Made by a program: the position numbers and the translations under genes
From: Bacilli bacterium
GTDB taxonomy: Bacteria > Bacillota_I > Bacilli_A > RFN20 > CAG-826
Length of the DNA stretch: 64,000 nt
Direction: 5' to 3'
NCBI GenBank assembly: GCA_045628045.1
Contig: JAZQOV010000011.1
Span: 73,470 to 137,469, forward strand
In this document: piece by piece, positions 8,754 to 17,788 of the stretch
Numbering within the stretch: position 1 is the stretch's first letter
Layout: every line of letters begins with the position of its first letter
The notes under the pieces: generated by a model
The model's database searches: none
What the model saw: the letters and a program-made list of their open reading frames with translations, nothing else
What the model was told of the DNA's origin: nothing

Positions 8754-8942
8754 TATTGTGCTTCTTTATTTATGTGAAAAATTATAGCAAACCCATTTAA
8801 AAATAAAAGAAGCTCAATAAGTAAGTAAACAAATTTCTAACCCGTGCGCACTTTCAAGGTTAAAGTGTGCGCGTGCGAGGCAAAAATTTTTGCTTTTTTA
8901 AGTAAAAATATTTTGTTAAACTTTGGTAGCGGAGAAAAATTT

Positions 8943-9614
8943 ATGAAAAAATTTAAAACATTATTTACTATCTTATGCCTCGGTGGTCTTTGGGGATTAC
9001 TTGAAGCTACACTTGGAACCTTACTTCATCTTCCAGTAATTCATGAAGTTGTTTTCTTTGGTTCTACAGCAGTTTTACTTCCAATTGCCTATTTAATTAC
9101 TGGCAGAGCATATAAAGTTACTGGCAGAGCCAGAGCAGCCTTATATGTTGGCTTAGTAGCAGCCGCTATTAAATCAGTAACATTTGCATTTGGACTTCCA
9201 GTTCAATATGTCATTAACCCAATGGTTTCTATTCTTTTAGAATCATCAGTTATGGCTGTTGCATTTAAAGTTAGCAAACCTGCAAATGTTTGTTCACCTA
9301 AATCATTCGTTACATTTGTTGTTGCATCTTTAGCATTTAGAGTCATTTATGTTGGCTATTCAATGGCTACAGCAGAACCATTCGGATCAGCATATTTAGT
9401 CGCTGGTTCAGTTATGTGGAATGCCATTATTGACTACGTTATTGTTGCTCTTGGAATCTCATGTATTTACGCTGTTATTTACATGCTTGTTGGAACACTC
9501 TTAACACGCAAAATATCCGTAAAATCCCTGGAAAAAGTCCAACATTTTGCCTATTCTCCAGTATTTTCTATTGTGATGATTGTAACTGCAGTTGTCGCAA
9601 CAATATTGTTATAA
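8943..9614 (+). CDS. Integral membrane protein, possibly an ECF-type substrate-binding component
   Basis: Probable start is ATG 8943 after a GCGGAG SD (the track starts at 8844). About 6 TM segments; GGLWGLLE motif. Confidence 0.55.
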   Translation: MKKFKTLFTILCLGGLWGLLEATLGTLLHLPVIHEVVFFGSTAVLLPIAYLITGRAYKVTGRARAALYVGLVAAAIKSVTFAFGLPVQYVINPMVSILLESSVMAVAFKVSKPANVCSPKSFVTFVVASLAFRVIYVGYSMATAEPFGSAYLVAGSVMWNAIIDYVIVALGISCIYAVIYMLVGTLLTRKISVKSLEKVQHFAYSPVFSIVMIVTAVVATILL

Positions 9615-9627
9615 TTTGAATTATATT

Positions 9628-9655
9628 TTGAAATTTATTTTCGCTGTGTTATATT
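9628..9655 (+). promoter_or_regulatory. SigA-type promoter, sRNA unit 1
   Basis: TTGAAA-16 nt-TATATT with extended -10 TG. Equivalent elements in unit 2 (10091-10118, TTGTAA) and unit 3 (10562-10589, TTGTTA). Confidence 0.7.
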
Positions 9656-9661
9656 ATTTGT

Positions 9662-9728
9662 GACGGGTACTGGTTTGTGCACGTAATAAAAGGATGTCAG
9701 GTTGCTGCCTGGCATCCTTTCTTCATTT
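9662..9728 (+). ncRNA. Putative antisense antitoxin sRNA 1
   Basis: Lies between the promoter and the terminator hairpin aaaggatgtcagg-ttgctg-cctggcatccttt. Its 5' part (9664-9677) is directly repeated at 9739-9752, so it is complementary to the convergent mRNA. Confidence 0.7.
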
Positions 9729-9754
9729 TAAGCAAAGGCGGGTACTGGTTTGCG

Positions 9755-9817
9755 CTAGTTGCTATTAAGCATTACGAGTAACACTAGGATAACAACTAGC
9801 ACCAGAAGGTACTCGAT
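9755..9817 (-). CDS. Putative type I toxin peptide 1 (20 aa, IEYLLVLVVILVLLVMLNSN; AUC start inferred)
   Basis: Hydrophobic frame conserved in all three units; GGAGG 9 nt upstream of ATC. Confidence 0.65.
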   Translation of the reverse strand: MEYLLVLVVILVLLVMLNSN

Positions 9818-9873
9818 AGCAAGTATCCTCCCTTCTGACCAAGCACCCGCGGTTGCCCGTAGATCTTGATCAT
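9796..9873 (-). CDS. 25-aa leader ORF 1 (MIKIYGQPRVLGQKGGYLLSSTFWC)
   Basis: GGAGG SD plus ATG; same length and stop position in all three units. Confidence 0.55.
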   Translation of the reverse strand: MIKIYGQPRVLGQKGGYLLSSTFWC

Positions 9874-9919
9874 ACCTGCCTCCATTTAAAACTATCCGAT
9901 TTTATTAATCGGCGAGCAC

Positions 9920-9954
9920 ATTATTTCACAACGTATATTCCTCTTGTCAAGAGG
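9920..9954 (-). promoter_or_regulatory. Promoter for toxin mRNA 1, with a palindrome over the -35
   Basis: TTGACA (9945-9950) with a weak -10 (TGAAAT or AATAAT); cctcttg-t-caagagg palindrome at 9940-9954. TTGACA is conserved at 10416-10421 and 10877-10882. Confidence 0.6.
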
Positions 9955-10123
9955 TCAAAAAAGTTACCTATATTAATATAGAAACTAAGATTTACTTATA
10001 ACTCTAGAACTATACTTATATTAATATTAGGTAAAAAATTTTTAATTTTTGTTTATATATTGTTTCTAGTACTGGTGAATTGTTTTTTCTTTGTAAATAG
10101 TTTTGAATGTGTTATATTATAAG

Positions 10124-10186
10124 CGATAGATACTTAGGCGCTATCAAATGAAAAGATATCAGGTTCCAGCCCGATATCTTTTTTTC
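10124..10186 (+). ncRNA. Putative antisense antitoxin sRNA 2
   Basis: Promoter upstream; 5' hairpin gatag..ctatc; terminator aaaagatatc..gatatctttttt; 10124-10137 repeated at 10197-10210. Confidence 0.7.
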
Positions 10187-10217
10187 GTTTTGAACTCGAT
10201 AGATACTTAGACGTTAG

Positions 10218-10289
10218 TTATTGCTTAGAATTATCTTGAATTATTTCAAGTAAAACAAGGACAATAACTAGCATAACCAGATACTGGAT
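10218..10289 (-). CDS. Putative toxin peptide 2 (23 aa, IQYLVMLVIVLVLLEIIQDNSKQ), frameshifted by a 13-nt insertion
   Basis: GGAGG-9 nt-ATC. Removing 10235-10247 restores a 20-aa peptide collinear with units 1 and 3. Confidence 0.55.
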   Translation of the reverse strand: MQYLVMLVIVLVLLEIIQDNSKQ

Positions 10290-10345
10290 GGCATACGCCC
10301 TCCTCTCTGACTAAGCACCCATCGAATTCTCTGGATCTTAGCCAT
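10268..10345 (-). CDS. 25-aa leader ORF 2 (MAKIQRIRWVLSQRGGRMPSSIWLC)
   Basis: GGAGGAG SD plus ATG; collinear with units 1 and 3. Confidence 0.55.
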   Translation of the reverse strand: MAKIQRIRWVLSQRGGRMPSSIWLC

Positions 10346-10594
10346 ATCTATCTCCTCCAAAACTATCCGATTCTATTAATCGGCGTGCATATTATTTCAC
10401 ACTGCATATTCCCCTTGTCAAGAGGTCAAAAAAGTTACCTATATTAATATAGAAACTAAGATTTACTTATAACTCTAGAACTATACTTATATTAATATTA
10501 GGTAAAAAATTTCTAATTTTTGTTTATGTATTGTTTCTAGTACTGGTGAATTGTTTTTTCTTTGTTAATACTTGTGAATGTGCTATATTATATT

Positions 10595-10660
10595 CGACAG
10601 GTACTTAGTAGACTAGTCAAATGAAAAGATATCAGGTTGCAGCCCGATATCTTTTTTTCA
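10595..10660 (+). ncRNA. Putative antisense antitoxin sRNA 3
   Basis: Promoter upstream; terminator aaaagatatc-aggttgcagccc-gatatctttttt; 18-nt 10598-10615 repeated exactly at 10673-10690. Confidence 0.7.
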
Positions 10661-10687
10661 TTTAGGACTCAGCAGGTACTTAGTAGA

Positions 10688-10750
10688 CTAATTATCTATC
10701 AGCATTAAAAGTAACACCAATATGATAATTAGTACAATAAGGTATTGGAT
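10688..10750 (-). CDS. Putative type I toxin peptide 3 (20 aa, IQYLIVLIIILVLLLMLIDN; AUC start inferred)
   Basis: GGAGG-9 nt-ATC; single TM-like helix. Confidence 0.65.
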   Translation of the reverse strand: MQYLIVLIIILVLLLMLIDN

Positions 10751-10806
10751 GTCATAAGACCTCCTCCCTGACTAAGCACCCTTTGAGCTCGTTGGATCTT
10801 AGCCAT
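10729..10806 (-). CDS. 25-aa leader ORF 3 (MAKIQRAQRVLSQGGGLMTSNTLLY)
   Basis: AGGAGG SD plus ATG; collinear with units 1 and 2. Confidence 0.55.
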   Translation of the reverse strand: MAKIQRAQRVLSQGGGLMTSNTLLY

Positions 10807-11089
10807 ACCTGCCTCCTGCTAAACTATCCGATTTTTAAAATCGGCGTGCATATTATTTCATAGGTTATATTCCCCTTGTCAAGAGGACTAAAAAGTTACC
10901 TTATATTAATATAACTCCATTGGATTTATTTACTAAGTAAAGATTTACTATATTAATAATAAGGTAAAAATTTAAAAAATTTGGTTCCTATTATATATTT
11001 AGTGCATAAAATCGAACTTTTTCTTTGAAAAGATTGTTTTAATGCGCTCGCTCGTGTATGATATTTATGCACATACATAGGAGAACTTA

Positions 11090-11659
11090 ATGGTTGGTAT
11101 TGTCCTTGCGGGTGGTTATTCATCCCGAGCCAAAGTTAATAAGCTCCTCCTGGAGGTAGATCGTAAACCTCTTATTCGTCATACAATTGACACTTTGAAA
11201 CCTTTCTGTAAAAAGGTTTTTGTTGTGACAGGAAAATATCATGATGAACTTAGTCAAGTTTTAGATGATGTTGAGATTGTTTGTAACAAAGATTTTGATT
11301 TAGGAATGTTTTCTAGCGTGCTTGCAGGAATTAATGCTGCTCTAGGCGAAGATGTTTTACTTATCCCAGGTGATATTTCTAATGTGGCTAAAACCACTAT
11401 TGAAGCTTTGCTTTACGGAAATAAAGACATCCGTATTCCTTCTTATGAAGGAATTACAGGACATCCTGTTTTTATTTCGAAGAAATATGTTGAACTTTTA
11501 TCTCATGAACCAGTTAGTTCCAGATTATGTGATTTTCTTAACGCGCACGAGTGTGCAAAGGAAGTTATCAGTGTAAATGACCCTTTTATCAATTTTGATA
11601 TTGATACGATTGAGGATTACAACAGATTTATTAATACAAGAAAGGAAGTTACTTTATGA
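11090..11659 (+). CDS. mocA: Molybdenum cofactor cytidylyltransferase (MocA/YgfJ family)
   Basis: VLAGGYSSR, GMFSSV, PGD, GHPV and DIDT motifs; adjacent to Mo hydroxylases. Confidence 0.85.
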   Translation: MVGIVLAGGYSSRAKVNKLLLEVDRKPLIRHTIDTLKPFCKKVFVVTGKYHDELSQVLDDVEIVCNKDFDLGMFSSVLAGINAALGEDVLLIPGDISNVAKTTIEALLYGNKDIRIPSYEGITGHPVFISKKYVELLSHEPVSSRLCDFLNAHECAKEVISVNDPFINFDIDTIEDYNRFINTRKEVTL

Positions 11660-12423
11660 AAGCAAAATCTTTCATTAGACCTTCTTCTTTAGAAGAGGCC
11701 TATAAGCTTGTTAAAGCTTCACCAAAGAACAAAATTGTCGCTGGTGGACTTTGGCTTAAAAAAGGAAACGCTGAAGCAGAAACTCTCATTGATATTTCAT
11801 CTCTTGGCCTAGACAAAATCTTAGACAAAAAAGAATACGTTGAAGTTGGCGCAATGGTTTCCCAAAGAGAACTTGAAAAATCTTCACTTGTTCCTGAAGT
11901 AATTAGAGAAGCAACTGCATTAGTTATGGGACCAGCATTCCGTAATATCGCGTCAGTTGGAGGATCAGTTTATGGAAAATATGGTTTTTCTGACATTGTC
12001 ACAGCATTACTTGTATACAAAGTAGAACTCGTTTTCTACCCAGAAGCAGTAATCACACTTGATGAATACGTCAAAAAACCTGGATTTTATGATGGAATTT
12101 TAACTCACATAAGAATTTACAAAGATAATCGCAAGGCTTTCTTTAAGAAAGTTGAAATTACTGCACTTGATTATCCAATTCTTAACGTTGCAGTTTCCGA
12201 AGGAAAAGAATGCAAAATTGTTATTGGTTCACGCCCACTTGTTGCATGCGTTTGCGAGCAAGCAAGCGCACTTGCTAGCAAAGGTGAAAAGGATTTTGAA
12301 AAGATCGCTGCTTTAGCAGTTGAAGAAACAAAATTCGGTGATTCAATCGCCACCAAAGGTGAATATAGAAAACAACTTGCACTCACTTATGTAAGACGTG
12401 GTCTTGAGGAGGTTAACAAATAA
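11656..12423 (+). CDS. Molybdenum hydroxylase FAD-binding subunit (YgfM-like)
   Basis: RPSSLEEAY, AGGLWL and FRNIASVGG motifs. Confidence 0.85.
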   Translation: MKAKSFIRPSSLEEAYKLVKASPKNKIVAGGLWLKKGNAEAETLIDISSLGLDKILDKKEYVEVGAMVSQRELEKSSLVPEVIREATALVMGPAFRNIASVGGSVYGKYGFSDIVTALLVYKVELVFYPEAVITLDEYVKKPGFYDGILTHIRIYKDNRKAFFKKVEITALDYPILNVAVSEGKECKIVIGSRPLVACVCEQASALASKGEKDFEKIAALAVEETKFGDSIATKGEYRKQLALTYVRRGLEEVNK

Positions 12424-12875
12424 TGTTAGTCAAATTCAATCTCAACGGACTTGATATCGAAGTCAATGTAAAACCAGGCGAGTATCTTTTAGATACACTT
12501 AGAGCTTATGGTGTTAAATCAGTCAAAAAAGGCTGTGATGGTTCCGCATGCGGAGTCTGTACAGTTCTTCTTGATGATAAACCAGTTTTATCTTGCTCAG
12601 TTTTAACTGCAAAAGTTGAAGGTCACAAAGTGACCACAGTTGAAGCAATTCAAGATGAAGCTGCTAAATTATCCGAATGCTTCTCTCGTGAAGGTGCAGA
12701 TCAGTGCGGCTTCTGTAATGCAGCATTCGCACTTATGGTGCACGCACTCAAAAAAGAAAATCCACATCCAACAGATGAGGAAATCAAAGATTATATGGTC
12801 GGAAACCTTTGCAGATGCACAGGTTATCAATCTCAACAAAAAGCAATTAAAGCTTATTTAGGAGGTAAGAAATAA
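12423..12875 (+). CDS. Molybdenum hydroxylase 2x[2Fe-2S] subunit
   Basis: GCDGSACGVC, QCGFC and NLCRCTGY. Confidence 0.92.
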   Translation: MLVKFNLNGLDIEVNVKPGEYLLDTLRAYGVKSVKKGCDGSACGVCTVLLDDKPVLSCSVLTAKVEGHKVTTVEAIQDEAAKLSECFSREGADQCGFCNAAFALMVHALKKENPHPTDEEIKDYMVGNLCRCTGYQSQQKAIKAYLGGKK

Positions 12876-15190
12876 TGAAAAAGAATTTCAAAGTTGTAAA
12901 CAACTTAACTCCTAGTGTTGATGGAAAAGGTCTTATGCAAGGTCGTGCTGTTTACACAGACGACATTGCTCCTCAAGGTGCTTTAATTGTTAAAATTTTA
13001 AGATCACCACATGCTTTCGCAAGAATTAAATCAATTGACGTTAGTGAAGCTGAAAAACTTCCTGGCGTTGCATGTATTTTAACCAAGGATAACGTCCCAC
13101 ACGTTTCATTTACACGTGCAGGACAAGGTTATCCTGAACCATCACCATACGATAAATTCATCTTGGATGAATATGTTCGTTATGTTGGTGATGAAGTTGC
13201 TGCAGTTGCAGCAGTTGATGAAGAAACTGCTTTAGCAGCAATGAAGCTCATCAAAGTTGATTATGAGGTTTTAAAACCAGTCCTCAACTTTGAAGAAGCT
13301 TTTGAAAACGAATCAGTTATCCACCCAGAAGATGGAATCCATGACATGTTCCCAATTGGTTTTGAACCAAAGAAGAATGTTGCAGCATCTTATGAGATGG
13401 AAGTTGGCAACGTCGAAGAAGAATTAAAGAAATCTGAAGTTGTTGTCGAAGACACATTCTATTCACAAGCACAAGCTCACGCTATGATCGAGCCACACAC
13501 TTGTAATGCACGCTTAGACGAGCACAATAGACTTGTTGTTTATTCCACAACTCAAACTCCATATCATATGCGTAGAATCATCTGCAAGACCTTAGGTCTT
13601 CCAGTTGATAGAGTTAGAGTCATTAAACCAAGAGTTGGTGGTGGCTTTGGTGGAAAACAAGCTTTCCATGGTGAAATGTTTGTCTCCCTTGTTACTTTAA
13701 GAACAAATAAACCTGCAAAATGTGTTTATACTCGTGAAGAAGTATTTGGTTGTTCTTATACGAGACACCCAATGAGAATCTCACTTAGAGTTGGTGCAAA
13801 TAAAGATGGTGTTATTAACGCAATCGATTGCCGCACTCTTTCAGATACAGGTGCTTATGGTGAACACGCTTTAACAGTCTTTATGATTGTTGGTTCTAAA
13901 GTTTTGCCACTTTATAACAAAGTTAAAGCTGTTAAATTCGGTGGAAGAGTTGTTTACACGAACCATGTATCTGCGGGCGCATATCGTGGTTATGGTGCTA
14001 TTCAAGGTAACTACGCAGTTGAATCCATCATTGATGAACTTGCGGAAAAGCTTCATATGGATCCAATTAAGCTTCGTGAAATTAACTCCATGAAGGAAAA
14101 AGAAACTTCCCCAATCTTTAAGATTATGGGTGAAGGTACCGAAGGTACAGAAATGATTATGGAAAGCTGCAAGCTTCCATATTGTATTAAACGTGGTCGT
14201 GAACTTATGGATTGGGACAAGAAATACCCAGTTAAGAAAGTTGGAGATCACAAAATTAGATCAGTTGGTTGCGCAATTGCCATGCAAGGTTCAGGAATTC
14301 CATTCTTAGATATGGGTTCTTGTACAATTAAACTTAATGATGGTGGCTCATACATGGTCACCGTTGGTGCTACTGATATTGGACAAGGCTCTGATACAGT
14401 TATTTCTCAAATTGTTGCAGAAGCTCTTCAAACAACAATGGACAAAGTCATTATCTATTCATCTGATACAGACTTAACTCCATACGATTGTGGTGCTTAC
14501 GCTTCTTCAACAACCTATGTTTCTGGTAACGCAGCATATAATGCTGCTTGCAAGATGAGAGAAAGACTTCTTAAAGAAGCTGCAGTTGAACTCAAAGTAA
14601 AACCAGATGAGGTTGAATTTGATGGAACAACATTTAAAGCTGGCAAGAAGTCAATCTCACTTGTTGATTTATCAACAGGAAGACTTTATAACAACAATAC
14701 ACATCAAATTGCTGTTACAGAATCTTATCATGGTCATGTTTCTCCACCTCCATTTATGGCAGCATTTGGAGAATTCGAATTTGACACAGAAACTTACGAA
14801 TACAAGATGATTAAGTACGTTACAGTTACTGACTGTGGTACAACAATTAACCCAGCATTGGCCAAAGGCCAAGTTGAAGGTGGTATTATCCAAGGTTATG
14901 GCATGGCTTCAAGTGAAGCGGTGCTTTATAGCTCAAATGGAAAACTACTTTCAAATACTTTTGATACTTATCACATTCCAACTGTCAAAGAAGTTGGTGA
15001 GCTTGTTACTGAATTTGCTGATTCATATGAACCAACAGGTCCATTTGGCGCAAAATCAGTTGGTGAAATTGGTATTGATACACCTCCAGCAGTACTCTGC
15101 AATGCAGTTTACAATGCTTTCGGTGTAAGAATTCATCATTTACCAATCACACCAGAAAAAATCTTTGAAACAATGAAGGCTAAAAAATAA
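12875..15190 (+). CDS. Molybdenum hydroxylase Moco-binding subunit (XdhD-like)
   Basis: GGGFGGK, AYRGYG, GQVEGG and KSVGE motifs. Confidence 0.9.
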   Translation: MKKNFKVVNNLTPSVDGKGLMQGRAVYTDDIAPQGALIVKILRSPHAFARIKSIDVSEAEKLPGVACILTKDNVPHVSFTRAGQGYPEPSPYDKFILDEYVRYVGDEVAAVAAVDEETALAAMKLIKVDYEVLKPVLNFEEAFENESVIHPEDGIHDMFPIGFEPKKNVAASYEMEVGNVEEELKKSEVVVEDTFYSQAQAHAMIEPHTCNARLDEHNRLVVYSTTQTPYHMRRIICKTLGLPVDRVRVIKPRVGGGFGGKQAFHGEMFVSLVTLRTNKPAKCVYTREEVFGCSYTRHPMRISLRVGANKDGVINAIDCRTLSDTGAYGEHALTVFMIVGSKVLPLYNKVKAVKFGGRVVYTNHVSAGAYRGYGAIQGNYAVESIIDELAEKLHMDPIKLREINSMKEKETSPIFKIMGEGTEGTEMIMESCKLPYCIKRGRELMDWDKKYPVKKVGDHKIRSVGCAIAMQGSGIPFLDMGSCTIKLNDGGSYMVTVGATDIGQGSDTVISQIVAEALQTTMDKVIIYSSDTDLTPYDCGAYASSTTYVSGNAAYNAACKMRERLLKEAAVELKVKPDEVEFDGTTFKAGKKSISLVDLSTGRLYNNNTHQIAVTESYHGHVSPPPFMAAFGEFEFDTETYEYKMIKYVTVTDCGTTINPALAKGQVEGGIIQGYGMASSEAVLYSSNGKLLSNTFDTYHIPTVKEVGELVTEFADSYEPTGPFGAKSVGEIGIDTPPAVLCNAVYNAFGVRIHHLPITPEKIFETMKAKK

Positions 15191-16494
15191 TGAACGATTT
15201 ACTTGTCAAAAACGGTTTAGTATTCCTAAAAGGAAAATGGGTTAAGACCAACTTAGCCGTTTTAGGCGAGAAAATTGTTTATATTGGTGAAAAAGAACAA
15301 GAAGCAACAGAAGTTATTGATGCTGAAGGACTAAAAGTCCTTCCAGGATTAATTGATCCTCATATTCATTTTGAACTTAATTGCGGAAGAGTTACTTCTT
15401 GTGATGATTTCTATTCAGGTTCTATTGCCGCTGCTTATGGTGGAGTTACAACTTATGTTGATTTCCTTGATCCTACAAGTAACGCTGAGGAACTTGAAAA
15501 GTCTTATTATGAACGTATTGCTTTGGCAAAGAAGTCAGTTGTTGACTATCACATGCACGCTTGCATAAAAATGCCAAACGGTGATTTAGAGGAATACGTT
15601 AAGACCGTTGTAAAACTCGGAATGCGCACAATTAAGTTGTTTACAACTTATAGTGACACAGGACGTAGAACTTATGACAAAGACATTATTGAATTACTTA
15701 AATTAAGTAAAAAATATAATGTTATGATTTGTGCTCATATTGAAAATGATGACTTAATTGACCTTAGAGAAGGTTATACCTTCAAGGATCTTCCAGTTTC
15801 TCGTCCAAGTATCTCTGAGACTAGCGAAGCTCTTAAACTTGCTAAGATTGTCCGTGAAACTGGTGGTAATTTCTACATGGTTCACTGCTCTAGTGGCGAA
15901 ACTCTTAAGGCGCTCAAAGAGCAATTTAGTGATATTTTAGGTAAAAACTTCTTTGTGGAAAGTTGTCCTCAATATTTTGTATTTAATAATTCAGTTCTTG
16001 AGGAAGATAATGGCAAGTTATTTACATTTGCTCCACCTCTAAGAAGTGAAAGAGAAAGACAGCTACTTGTTGCTAACTATAAAGACATTATTTCTATTGG
16101 CACAGACCATTGTGCATTTATGAAAAAAGAGAAGGATTTCCCACGTCTAATGGGCTTCCCACTTGGCGTTGGTGGAATCGAACATAGTTTCTCAATTATG
16201 TATAAAAGATTTGGTGAAGAAATCATCGATAAAATGTCAAAAAACACGGGAATTCTCCAGGATTTTCCAACTAAAGGAGAACTTGAAGTTGGTAAAGATG
16301 CAGACATTTCTATCTTTAAAGAAGTGCCAGATTTTATTGAAAAAGAAAACCATGGAACTTGTGATTATTCGATATATGATGGAGTCCTTGGTTCAGGTGA
16401 ATTTGTACACGTAATTAATCGTGGAAAATTTGTTATCAAAAACAGAAAACTTATTCCACATGTTGGAAAAGAAATTGTTTGTGGGGTGAAATAA
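15190..16494 (+). CDS. Cyclic amidohydrolase (dihydropyrimidinase/hydantoinase, HyuA-like)
   Basis: PGLIDPHIH, AAAYGGVTT, PPLR and GTDHC motifs. Confidence 0.85.
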   Translation: MNDLLVKNGLVFLKGKWVKTNLAVLGEKIVYIGEKEQEATEVIDAEGLKVLPGLIDPHIHFELNCGRVTSCDDFYSGSIAAAYGGVTTYVDFLDPTSNAEELEKSYYERIALAKKSVVDYHMHACIKMPNGDLEEYVKTVVKLGMRTIKLFTTYSDTGRRTYDKDIIELLKLSKKYNVMICAHIENDDLIDLREGYTFKDLPVSRPSISETSEALKLAKIVRETGGNFYMVHCSSGETLKALKEQFSDILGKNFFVESCPQYFVFNNSVLEEDNGKLFTFAPPLRSERERQLLVANYKDIISIGTDHCAFMKKEKDFPRLMGFPLGVGGIEHSFSIMYKRFGEEIIDKMSKNTGILQDFPTKGELEVGKDADISIFKEVPDFIEKENHGTCDYSIYDGVLGSGEFVHVINRGKFVIKNRKLIPHVGKEIVCGVK

Positions 16495-16495
16495 T

Positions 16496-17788
16496 ATGAA
16501 CGCTATTATTAACGCTAGAATTTATGACTATGTAACCTACATTGAAAACGGGTATCTTATTTACGACGATAAGATTGTTGAAGTGGGAGACATGAAAAAC
16601 TTCAAAAATAAAGGATTCGACAAAATCGAAGACTATGAAGGTGATTTACTCATGCCTACATTTGTTTGTGCACACTCTCACATATATTCGATTTTTGCTC
16701 GTGGCTTATCTCTTCCATTTAATCCACAAAATTTCCAAGATATTTTGAATCAAATGTGGTGGAAGATTGATGCAGAGCTTGTTAACAAAGAAACTTATTA
16801 TTCAGGAATTGCAGCAGGTAGTGAATTCCTTCTTAACGGAGTTACATCTGTAATTGACCATCATGCATCTGGTGAAATCACAGGTTCTTTGAAAGAACTT
16901 AGAAAAGCTTTTGTGGGTCCACTTAAAATGCGTGGTATTTTCTGTTTTGAAACTTCAGATCGTTATGATGTGAAGAAATGTTTAAAAGAAAACGCTAGCT
17001 TCGCTAAAAAATATCCTGGTGAAGGATTATTTGGCATGCACGCTTCAATGTCTATTTCAGATAAAACACTTAAAGGCATTGCTAAAGCTCAAAACGGTGT
17101 TCCTTTACACGTGCATTGTGCTGAAAGCGAAATGGATGAAGCTGATAGCCTTGCAAAATATAAAAAGAATATTATTAAAAGATTTGATGATGCTGGAATA
17201 CTAATTCCAAATTCACTCGTCGTTCATGGTGTTCATCTAAAAGATGAAGAACTTGAAATAATCGCTAAAAATAAATGTTATATGGTTGTTAATACAACCT
17301 CAAATATGAACAATGCAGTTGGTTTACCATTTGTTAAAAACTACATTGATCATAATATTCCAGTTATGGTTGGAAACGATGGCCTTAATTCAAATATGGC
17401 CAGCGAATATATGAATGTTTTGTTCTCAGGACATTTAAGAGTTGGTTCTCCAACTGCATTAGGTGTTGGTGATATTCAAAACATGATTAGAAATTCTTAC
17501 AAATACGTCGGTGAAAGACTCGGCGTAAAACTTGGTGAATTTAAGAAGGGTTACGAAGCAGATTTCATGAGAGTTCATTATCGTCCATTCACAAAAATGG
17601 ATGAGACAAATGCACTCGGTCATATCGTGTTTGGACTCTTCCCAAATTTCAAACCAAGAGACGTTTATACTTACGGTAAAAAACGAGTAAATAACTACAA
17701 AATCGCCAGTAAATCCCTGGTAAATCAGGTTATTGAGGCCAGAAAATATGCTGACGAATTATGGGCCAAAGTTAAAGGAGGAAAATAA
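16496..17788 (+). CDS. ssnA: SsnA-like amidohydrolase/deaminase
   Basis: AHSHIYSIFARG, NGVTSVIDHHAS, GMHAS, HVHCAE and SNMNNAVG. Confidence 0.8.
   Translation: MNAIINARIYDYVTYIENGYLIYDDKIVEVGDMKNFKNKGFDKIEDYEGDLLMPTFVCAHSHIYSIFARGLSLPFNPQNFQDILNQMWWKIDAELVNKETYYSGIAAGSEFLLNGVTSVIDHHASGEITGSLKELRKAFVGPLKMRGIFCFETSDRYDVKKCLKENASFAKKYPGEGLFGMHASMSISDKTLKGIAKAQNGVPLHVHCAESEMDEADSLAKYKKNIIKRFDDAGILIPNSLVVHGVHLKDEELEIIAKNKCYMVVNTTSNMNNAVGLPFVKNYIDHNIPVMVGNDGLNSNMASEYMNVLFSGHLRVGSPTALGVGDIQNMIRNSYKYVGERLGVKLGEFKKGYEADFMRVHYRPFTKMDETNALGHIVFGLFPNFKPRDVYTYGKKRVNNYKIASKSLVNQVIEARKYADELWAKVKGGK

Follow-up and report, generated by a model that had tools for sequence, protein, structure and literature searches.

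Three short hydrophobic reading frames with none of the usual start codons at their beginning raise the question of whether they are translated and, if so, from which codon and to what end. They lie in three tandem units on the minus strand (9620-10960) of a 64,000-nucleotide (nt) stretch from the genome of an uncultured gut Bacilli bacterium of the family CAG-826 (assembly GCA_045628045.1, contig JAZQOV010000011.1, positions 73,470 to 137,469), here called the window, to which coordinates refer unless a contig is named. The frames, IQYLIVLIIILVLLLMLIDN* (10750-10688), IQYLVMLVIVLVLLEIIQDNSKQ* (10289-10218) and IEYLLVLVVILVLLVMLNSN* (9817-9755), had been located exactly in a first-pass annotation, which proposed that they start at a conserved AUC. 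The present analysis indicates that ATC is very probably the start codon of the hydrophobic peptide, and that the conserved property is that of being a start codon, not AUC itself. Each unit probably constitutes a type I toxin-antitoxin (TA) module of an unannotated family with the peptide as its membrane toxin, toxicity being deduced solely from the size and hydropathy of the peptide and the design of the locus.

The peptides comprise 20-23 residues in the window (18-23 amino acids (aa) across the family), with grand average of hydropathy (GRAVY) values of 1.1-2.6. As the first-pass annotation had noted, no ATG, GTG or TTG is conserved at the beginning of the frame: none occurs upstream within the open frame in any of the three copies, and the first ones downstream are codons 11, 6 and 6. 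Its suggestion of coding selection was also borne out. Among the three window copies, the mean pairwise difference at codon positions 1, 2 and 3 is 0.40, 0.04 and 0.52, respectively, and over codons 4-14 each pair differs by 9-11 nucleotides, yet all 11 codons stay hydrophobic (P=0.004-0.013 per pair compared to random changes; the pairs are not independent). Of the 37 genomes of the genus, 4 proved in DNA, profile and peptide searches to carry such units, 13 in all: five in the window genome (G000; 1.07 Mb, 96% complete), two in G017, and three each in G008 and G033. A broken copy in G008 was excluded from the structure counts and from those of the ratio of nonsynonymous to synonymous change (pN/pS), for which 12 of the 13 units were used. 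Codon conservation in these 12 intact units, a check that the first-pass annotation had proposed, gave a pN/pS of 0.50 and no stop in the peptide frame, while the two other frames contain stops in 12 and 5 of them. The hydrophobic frame is under coding constraint, above chance.

In all three copies GGAGG (10764-10760, 10303-10299 and 9831-9827) ends exactly 9 nt upstream of the ATC, as first reported. It belongs to a Shine-Dalgarno (SD) sequence, designated SD2, which in 11 of the 13 units matches the tail of the genome's 16S rRNA over 10-11 bp (predicted duplexes of -15.6 to -17.5 kcal/mol, likewise in 11 of 13). Among 127 GGAGG-led genes of the window genome, the spacing is 7-9 nt in 91 and 9 nt in 30. 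Since SD2 pairs over 10-11 bp at the genome's usual spacing, the AUC should be readable. The first column of an ungapped alignment of the 13 same-genus peptides holds ATC (four units), ATA (three), TTG (two), ATT, CTG, ATG and GTG (one each). All 13 are start codons of genetic code table 11, and all seven codons of that set are represented; the best of 14 control columns further downstream has 10 of 13 codons in the set, for which 44% of the 152 isoleucine, leucine, valine or methionine codons there qualify. The chance of such a column is about 0.003 if seven independent draws are assumed. All 13 accepted units from other genera have ATG at this column. In 3 of the 13 same-genus units an in-frame stop (TAG or TGA) immediately precedes the start codon, so that neither initiation nor a shift further upstream could yield the peptide. 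The idea of a conserved AUC start therefore holds in part: the start at ATC is very probable and the ATC is present in all three window copies, but it is not conserved in homologs. Homologs lacking the ATC or the frame had been named as counter-evidence; the frame is kept and the variants are all start codons. As far as the ATC is concerned this demand was too strict, because homologs substitute other start codons, an exchange that strengthens the start reading.

The seven table-11 codons form the top two tiers of initiation in E. coli, at 10-100% and 1-2% of AUG (10.1101/063800), and AUA and AUU starts of S. aureus likewise stand behind an extended SD, with an output of ~10% (PMC13009471). 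With effect sizes borrowed from these two species, AUC would cut initiation to a few per cent of that at AUG. The window units resemble infC, pcnB and S. aureus cvfC1, ccpN and citZ, as well as E. faecalis ebpA (PMC4447247), in having a near-cognate start behind an extended SD, and differ from these genes, none of which is a type I toxin, in that a single family covers all seven starts in 13 units of one genus. The infC gene of the window genome (G000:C6:130984, plus strand, L151; IF3_C match) lacks a canonical SD-led start and apparently begins at ATA, 8 nt past GGAGG. Another candidate near-cognate start is that of a 229-codon open reading frame (ORF) with ATT 10 nt past GGAGG (G000:C2:1275, plus strand). 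An altered genetic code was rejected, as TAA, TAG and TGA end 623, 119 and 98 of 840 long ORFs. Sequencing contigs from six of seven DNA runs cover the units and, as a hint only, show no change of the copy 1 ATC among the variants listed.

The low near-cognate initiation in E. coli (1-2% of AUG; 10.1101/063800) would also suit another explanation, namely that the copies with ATC, ATA or ATT (collectively ATH) are inactivated toxins, silenced by loss of AUG, whose frames are decaying. One G008 copy with an ATA start, a stop at codon 3 and TnpB between promoter and leader fits this description. The six intact units of the ATH clade, however, still differ by 0.34, 0.08 and 0.52 at codon positions 1, 2 and 3, the clade has moved only among ATC, ATA and ATT, and cognate antisense pairing (see below) is kept; decay of this kind is very improbable.

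The units are ~465 bp long (repeat spacings of 461-473) and share one order of elements: (i) a promoter, (ii) an SD-led leader ORF, (iii) the strong SD2, covered by a hairpin, (iv) the peptide ORF and (v) a convergent antisense RNA gene. The sense promoters have a perfect -35 box and a 19-nt spacer, and the predicted distance from promoter to terminator is ~230 nt. In the list below, SD1 is the SD of the leader, element B a segment within the leader, and DR1 and DR2 the two direct repeats of each unit.

10852-10882, minus strand: copy 3 predicted sense promoter (TTGACA at 10882-10877, 19 nt, TG-extended AATAAT), a consensus match only; copies 2 and 1 are arranged alike
10828-10845, minus strand: copy 3 predicted 5' hairpin of the mRNA
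10729-10816, minus strand: copy 3 SD1 (10816-10812) and 25-codon leader ORF (10806-10729), which crosses SD2 and ends 19 nt within the peptide ORF in a different frame
10766-10791, minus strand: copy 3 element B, for which two alternative partners are predicted, the leader start (in a local hairpin) and DR1
10753-10764, minus strand: copy 3 SD2 (GGAGG at 10764-10760, among the 10-11 bp that match the 16S tail), followed by the out-of-frame ATG (10755-10753)
10688-10750, minus strand: copy 3 hydrophobic peptide ORF, 20 aa, ATC start
10673-10690, minus strand: copy 3 DR1, 18 nt, same as DR2, starting at the stop codon
10621-10660, both strands: copy 3 hairpin with U-runs on either strand, a predicted bidirectional terminator
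10596-10662, plus strand: copy 3 predicted antisense RNA, ~65 nt with approximate ends, which would contain the DR2 complement (10615-10598) and the terminator hairpin
10562-10589, plus strand: copy 3 predicted antisense promoter (TTGTTA, 16 nt, TG-extended TATATT)
10367-10421, minus strand: copy 2 predicted sense promoter (TTGACA at 10421-10416; TG/-10 at 10399-10391) and 5' hairpin (10384-10367)
10268-10358, minus strand: copy 2 SD1 and 25-codon leader ORF (10345-10268), containing element B (10330-10308), SD2 (10303-10299) and an out-of-frame ATG (10294-10292)
10218-10289, minus strand: copy 2 hydrophobic peptide ORF, 23 aa, ATC start
10124-10210, minus strand: copy 2 DR1 (10210-10197), hairpin (10187-10148) and DR2 (10137-10124); the repeat is exact over 14 nt and copy-specific
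10091-10189, plus strand: copy 2 predicted antisense promoter (10091-10118) and antisense RNA (~10125-10189)
9896-9950, minus strand: copy 1 predicted sense promoter (TTGACA at 9950-9945; TG/-10 at 9928-9920) and 5' hairpin (9913-9896)
9796-9883, minus strand: copy 1 SD1 and 25-codon leader ORF (9873-9796), containing element B (9859-9837), SD2 (9831-9827) and an out-of-frame TTG (9822-9820)
9755-9817, minus strand: copy 1 hydrophobic peptide ORF, 20 aa, ATC start
9664-9752, minus strand: copy 1 DR1 (9752-9739), hairpin (9725-9686) and DR2 (9677-9664); the repeat is exact over 14 nt and copy-specific
9628-9728, plus strand: copy 1 predicted antisense promoter (9628-9655) and antisense RNA (~9662-9728), with a scored intrinsic terminator at its end (9689-9720)

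An SD-led ATG or GTG leader start, 40-90 nt upstream of the peptide, is present in all 26 units, compared to 17 of 404 ordinary control genes. In the 12 intact same-genus units, the leader reaches the peptide start in 11, and its frame relative to the peptide is -1 in eight, +1 in three and the same in one; its length varies from 8 to 40 aa across homologs. A role of the leader peptide as the product was rejected on account of this variation and because the conserved part of the leader is a covarying hairpin. In all 13 units SD2 and the peptide start lie within a predicted hairpin of -8 to -15 kcal/mol, and in full folds opening them would cost 13-22 kcal/mol. The coupling of the peptide to the leader, one of the options offered by the first-pass annotation, is thus likely. 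Two coupling models, both reviewed in PMC12548453, come into consideration. Termination-reinitiation, with SD2 opened by the terminating ribosome, is unsupported by folding, since a mask for a ribosome at the leader stop lowers the predicted opening cost only from 12.8 to 11.1 kcal/mol. Unfolding of SD2 by a passing ribosome may occur. Somewhat better than an even chance is given to a mechanism in which SD2 and the ATC are folded shut and the peptide would be made only when a ribosome loaded at SD1 crosses the leader and melts the fold, in the manner of mok/hok.

The first-pass annotation had also offered a -1 shift into the hydrophobic frame. Such a shift, be it out of the leader or after initiation at the ATG at -5, would produce a fusion peptide. 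The -1 relation found in 8 of 12 units agrees with this, and SD2 stands at a distance that may stimulate such a shift, as in dnaX. Nevertheless, no conserved slippery run was seen, the leader occupies all three frames across homologs (+1 in three units, in-frame in one), stops stand directly before the start in 3 of 13 units, and 14 homologs have ATG at the same column. As leader frame and length vary while the ribosome-loading site is kept, a programmed -1 shift was rejected and is given almost no credence.

The out-of-frame codon just mentioned is ATG, ATG and TTG in copies 3, 2 and 1. It lies 4 nt past GGAGG, in the frame of the 25-codon leader, and is followed by the stop 8 codons later, in agreement with the first-pass description. 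In eight units (ATG in six, TTG, GTG) the T and G at -4 and -3 are invariant within an otherwise variable spacer, and this NTG at -5 is present in all but one of the nine near-cognate units and in none of the four that start with ATG, GTG or TTG; seven of the eight belong to one clade. Judging from this pattern, NTG at -5 is a real conserved feature. A 4-nt spacing is rare in the window genome (4 of 127 GGAGG-led genes), and in copy 3 a second GGAGG register places the out-of-frame ATG at 7 nt. Loose contig ends, which serve as a hint only, include one variant that keeps ATG at -5 and a two-contig consensus (agreement 0.83) with ATT at -5 before ATC. It had been proposed that toxin output is damped by a weak AUC competing with a decoy start. 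A toxin-type locus with damped output is indeed the best reading, but it is doubtful that the out-of-frame AUG acts as a decoy and drains some of the initiation.

The antisense RNA and its pairing through repeats go beyond what the first-pass annotation had described. Downstream of its stop codon, each unit has the repeats DR1 and DR2, separated by a hairpin that carries U-runs on both strands, and then a sigma-70-like promoter of convergent orientation, 24-32 nt beyond the hairpin in 12 of 12 units. The predicted antisense RNA (56-66 nt, two hairpins) would have its own promoter, share its terminator with the mRNA and end about 25-30 nt past the peptide stop, without overlapping the ORF. The repeat sequence differs between units and is kept within each of them (14-18 nt exact in the window). 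In an all-against-all comparison of 12 units, the predicted duplex between the antisense 5' end and DR1 reached -24.3 kcal/mol for cognate and -10.9 kcal/mol for non-cognate pairs; the cognate partner was best in 10 of 12 units, that is, in all but two that are nearly identical to each other, and, when only the paralogs of the window genome were compared, in 5 of 5. For element B and DR1 the corresponding values were -25.4 and -14.6 kcal/mol, with the cognate partner best in 9 of 12, and in 9 of 12 the sense strand gave the more stable form of this pairing. A permutation test of the cognate duplexes gave p of about 5e-5, with non-independent kin. When DR1 was masked, the mean predicted cost of opening the leader start rose from 7.2 to 12.0 kcal/mol, compared to 7.4 kcal/mol with a mask of similar length in the ORF; the effect clearly exceeded the control in 9 of 12 units, exceeded it by less than 1 kcal/mol in copy 1 and did not exceed it in two. 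Most units of other genera have, 33-69 nt beyond the stop, a long segment that is complementary to the 5' leader.

It is highly probable that the antisense RNA represses in some way, by closure of the leader and/or degradation of the duplex. The chances are a little below even that DR1 normally pairs with B, which would keep the leader start open, and that the antisense RNA takes DR1 so that B refolds onto the leader start. Less probable still is a stored, inactive state in which DR2 of a read-through mRNA would be folded against SD1. The antisense RNA was rejected as an Fst-like blocker of the start: its pairing with the 5' region of the mRNA stays within ~1.7 standard deviations of shuffled controls in 12 of 12 units and is weaker than their mean in six.

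These results also bear on the view that the ATC start is independent of the leader, that the upstream SD-ATG serves for ribosome standby or as a decoy, and that the antisense RNA only triggers decay through 3' overlap, as in RatA/txpA. This view accords with the variable frame and length of the leader, with the one leader that stops upstream of SD2, with the slight opening in the parked-ribosome model, and with a weak RatA (RF01776) match at 9645-9734 (E=2.4, 24 bits with a cut-off of 49). The view is nonetheless improbable, as an SD and a start codon are kept at -45 to -81 in all 26 units and, beyond the overlap, a specific match between antisense RNA and DR1 is retained, which pure decay would not need.

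The assignment to the type I class agrees with three traits of that class: a small hydrophobic protein (about 20-60 aa) on an mRNA of 150-400 nt, a toxin ribosome-binding site hidden in mRNA structure (here a predicted hairpin), and a cis antisense RNA gene with its own promoter and terminator, here predicted from sequence only. Comparison with known systems indicates that the 3' half of the unit is built like Fst/RNAII and SprA1/SprA1AS, and the 5' half like hok/mok. Fst/RNAII (par of pAD1), Fst-Sm/srSm and SprA1/SprA1AS consist of convergent mRNA and antisense RNA with a common bidirectional terminator (PMC8167048, PMC3543317, PMC8594479, PMC6562991). The window units share with them, by prediction, this terminator, an antisense RNA located 3' of the ORF without overlap, and pairing through direct repeats that lie outside the overlapping part of the two RNAs and are read in opposite directions both there and here. 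Unlike in Fst and SprA1, the mRNA repeat lies at or just past the stop and not over the start, the peptide has 18-23 aa, a leader ORF is present, and the start is often ATH or CTG; fst itself has a weak GUG start. The Fst motif APUU(A/V)GUU (PMC3543317) is absent from the peptide alignment, and PF13955 (Fst) found no match in the genome at E<=10, a blunt test in which the controls scored only below the cut-off.

In hok/mok/Sok and ldrD/ldrX/RdlD, a leader ORF overlaps the toxin start, which is structured, and the 5' and 3' parts of the mRNA pair (PMC8167048, PMC4147584). The overlapping leader ORF is found here too, along with a predicted fold over the toxin start and predicted pairing of 5' with 3' parts. 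In contrast to Sok and Rdl, encoded opposite the 5' leader, the predicted antisense promoter of the window units is 3' of the ORF and the RNA would act at a distance; the peptide is shorter than Hok or Ldr, has no Pfam match and occurs in a host of Gram-positive lineage. No Hok or Ldr peptide and no Sok or Rdl RNA was matched by Pfam or Rfam. Bacillus TxpA/RatA, YonT and BsrG/SR4 (PMC6562991) resemble the units in having a 3' convergent antisense RNA and a very strong SD, and yonT starts with GUG (PMC6562991); unlike in these systems, whose antisense RNAs overlap the ORF (PMC8594479), the predicted RNA ends before the ORF. Hol_Tox (PF16935) gave a sole match, elsewhere and below the cut-off. 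At gathering scores Rfam had no match in the window, and at E<=10 only RatA (2.4) and BSnc120 (2.9). Pfam, NCBIfam and PHROGs yielded only generic single-helix matches (E>=0.046) in a scan of 11 of 15 members, the rest being under 20 aa.

Ibs of E. coli is a hydrophobic peptide of 18-20 aa. The present peptides, too, are short, hydrophobic and encoded in repeated loci (the Pfam model of Ibs has length 19), and they differ in that Sib spans the whole ORF (PMC8594479) while the predicted window RNA does not; PF13956 (Ibs) gave no match, whereas its control was detected in E. coli above the cut-off. PMC8167048 treats non-canonical starts of type I toxins in general terms. No type I toxin with an AUC, AUA, AUU or CUG start was found in the literature searched, which did not include most subscription papers, the T1TAdb records or the supplement of Fozo et al. 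2010, where relatives might be listed.

The same genes and ATC start might serve a non-toxic small membrane protein under antisense control, such as a transporter regulator or a phage-exclusion peptide. No toxin family matches the peptides, and the grounds for toxicity are size, hydropathy (GRAVY 1.1-2.6) and locus design. Layered repression, copy-specific antisense pairing, tandem and scattered paralogs, unrelated neighbourhoods and patchy spread (4 of 37 genus genomes) are, in turn, traits of type I toxin loci (PMC8594479, PMC4147584), which makes a non-toxic peptide unlikely. Probable as the type I module is, the complete picture of an undescribed CAG-826 type I family with a seven-codon start dial, leader-dependent translation, an allosteric antitoxin and an AUG sink is offered tentatively and is rather doubtful as a whole; in its allosteric part, the antitoxin would bind the repeat behind the toxin stop, refold the mRNA and shut the leader start about 120 nt away.

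Several observations weigh against the interpretation of the units given here. No known toxin profile matches the peptides. The seven start codons are ATG and its hydrophobic single-base neighbours, and a drifting internal methionine would at first give a similar set; for this reason, the start-codon argument rests on the preceding stops, the SD and the absence of two-step codons. The 13 units correspond to about seven independent lineages, so that the nominal probabilities (0.003 and p of about 5e-5) overstate the case, and one clade, with support of 96/98, accounts for all ATH starts but one. RNA structure may help to hold the ATC, as ATC(C) is predicted to pair with SD2 in several copies. 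The leader stop is at +19 in just 6 of 12 units and before SD2 in one, and the mask at the leader stop has the small effect described above (12.8 to 11.1 kcal/mol). The specificity of SD1 for DR2 is weak, the cognate pair being best in 5 of 12 (11.3 kcal/mol for real tails, 9.5 kcal/mol for shuffled ones). The GTG unit might instead be translated from an ATG that lies in frame 9 nt further upstream.

Two units of the window genome lie outside the window. One (C2:55421-55676, minus strand; L129, L150) is situated between a YebC-like gene and rplM-rpsI (by eye) and has an ATA start right after an in-frame TAG; in the other (C11:62914-63096, minus strand; L098), located after thyA-folA (by eye), the leader is fused in frame to a GTG-led peptide. 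Units L013, L014 and L046 occupy the same site in three genomes, divergent from an rpsF-like gene, but agree neither in start codon (ATT, ATG, CTG) nor in repeat sequence. At this site, the G017 unit shares the upstream region, and its body is near-identical to the other G017 unit, which suggests replacement or gene conversion. In G008:C2 (L016:61-1458, L008:1497-1740), an IS605-type TnpB element is inserted between the promoter/5' hairpin and SD1 of one unit, which has an ATA start and a stop at peptide codon 3; a helix-turn-helix gene and a YhcG fragment are nearby.

A search of 401 family genomes with the peptide profile gave 33 rows: the 13 same-genus units, 13 from other genera and seven dropped by eye as off-frame matches within ordinary genes. 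The 13 other-genus peptides, short and beginning with MEYL, MQYL or MAYL, come from five genomes of three genera, and three of them were already in the profile. They are ATG-led, have leaders and occur in G303 (L117, L133, L141, L149, L153, L154), G492 (L134, L143, L147), G297 (L131, L144), G288 (L132) and G253 (L138); most have the complement past the stop described above, a 3' layout unlike that of the window units. Weak rows of the other homolog searches were excluded by eye as off-frame or ordinary-gene matches, and in one search inspection was mostly confined to rows up to E=0.005. A scan of named genomes for the conserved 5' hairpin revealed five loci, in Bacilli bacterium or Candidatus Fiminaster equi, which assigns the genus to Ca. 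Fiminaster, of family CAG-826 and order RFN20 (PMC8957277). Pattern scans gave one match in metagenomes and 18 and 5 in viral contigs, and those inspected (19/19, 5/5) were due to chance, as was the one match added by an order-wide pattern search of 401 genomes; blastn against plasmids and phages found no match. When a natural ORF of 51 aa, in which leader and peptide are in frame, served as the query, a protein database search returned two close relatives; an Atlas search with a 39-aa ORF of this kind gave no usable match.

The three-unit array is flanked on one side by an ECF-type transporter gene and a membrane-protein gene, and on the other by a molybdopterin-enzyme/amidohydrolase cluster. 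A multi-pass membrane ORF without a Pfam match (8844-9614, plus strand; true start probably an internal ATG near 8943) ends next to the copy 1 antisense promoter. The cluster at 11090-17788 (plus strand) begins directly upstream of copy 3, divergent from it, and encodes a MobA-like nucleotidyltransferase, two amidohydrolases, and FAD (xanthine-dehydrogenase-type), 2Fe-2S (by eye) and molybdopterin subunits; a role in purine or pyrimidine catabolism is likely. An AT-rich block with palindromic TATATTAATAT(A) boxes precedes each sense promoter (9960-10030, 10430-10500 and 10895-10960); it recurs at related loci and may be a regulator-binding site.

Type I toxin searches and gene callers assume ATG, GTG or TTG, and 9 of the 13 genus units would be missed or called a leader peptide. 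Since these nine escape such calling, hidden toxin families may be commoner than catalogued. If the proposed control holds, an antitoxin acting at a repeat past the stop to control an upstream leader would combine the hok/mok and Fst/RNAII designs, which have been described separately. The units form a natural series of the same 20-codon gene with ATG, GTG, TTG, CTG, ATT, ATC or ATA, which makes the trade-off between start codon, SD strength and hairpin stability directly testable, and, as the infC of the window genome apparently starts at ATA, whether toxin output follows IF3 proofreading can be tested as well.

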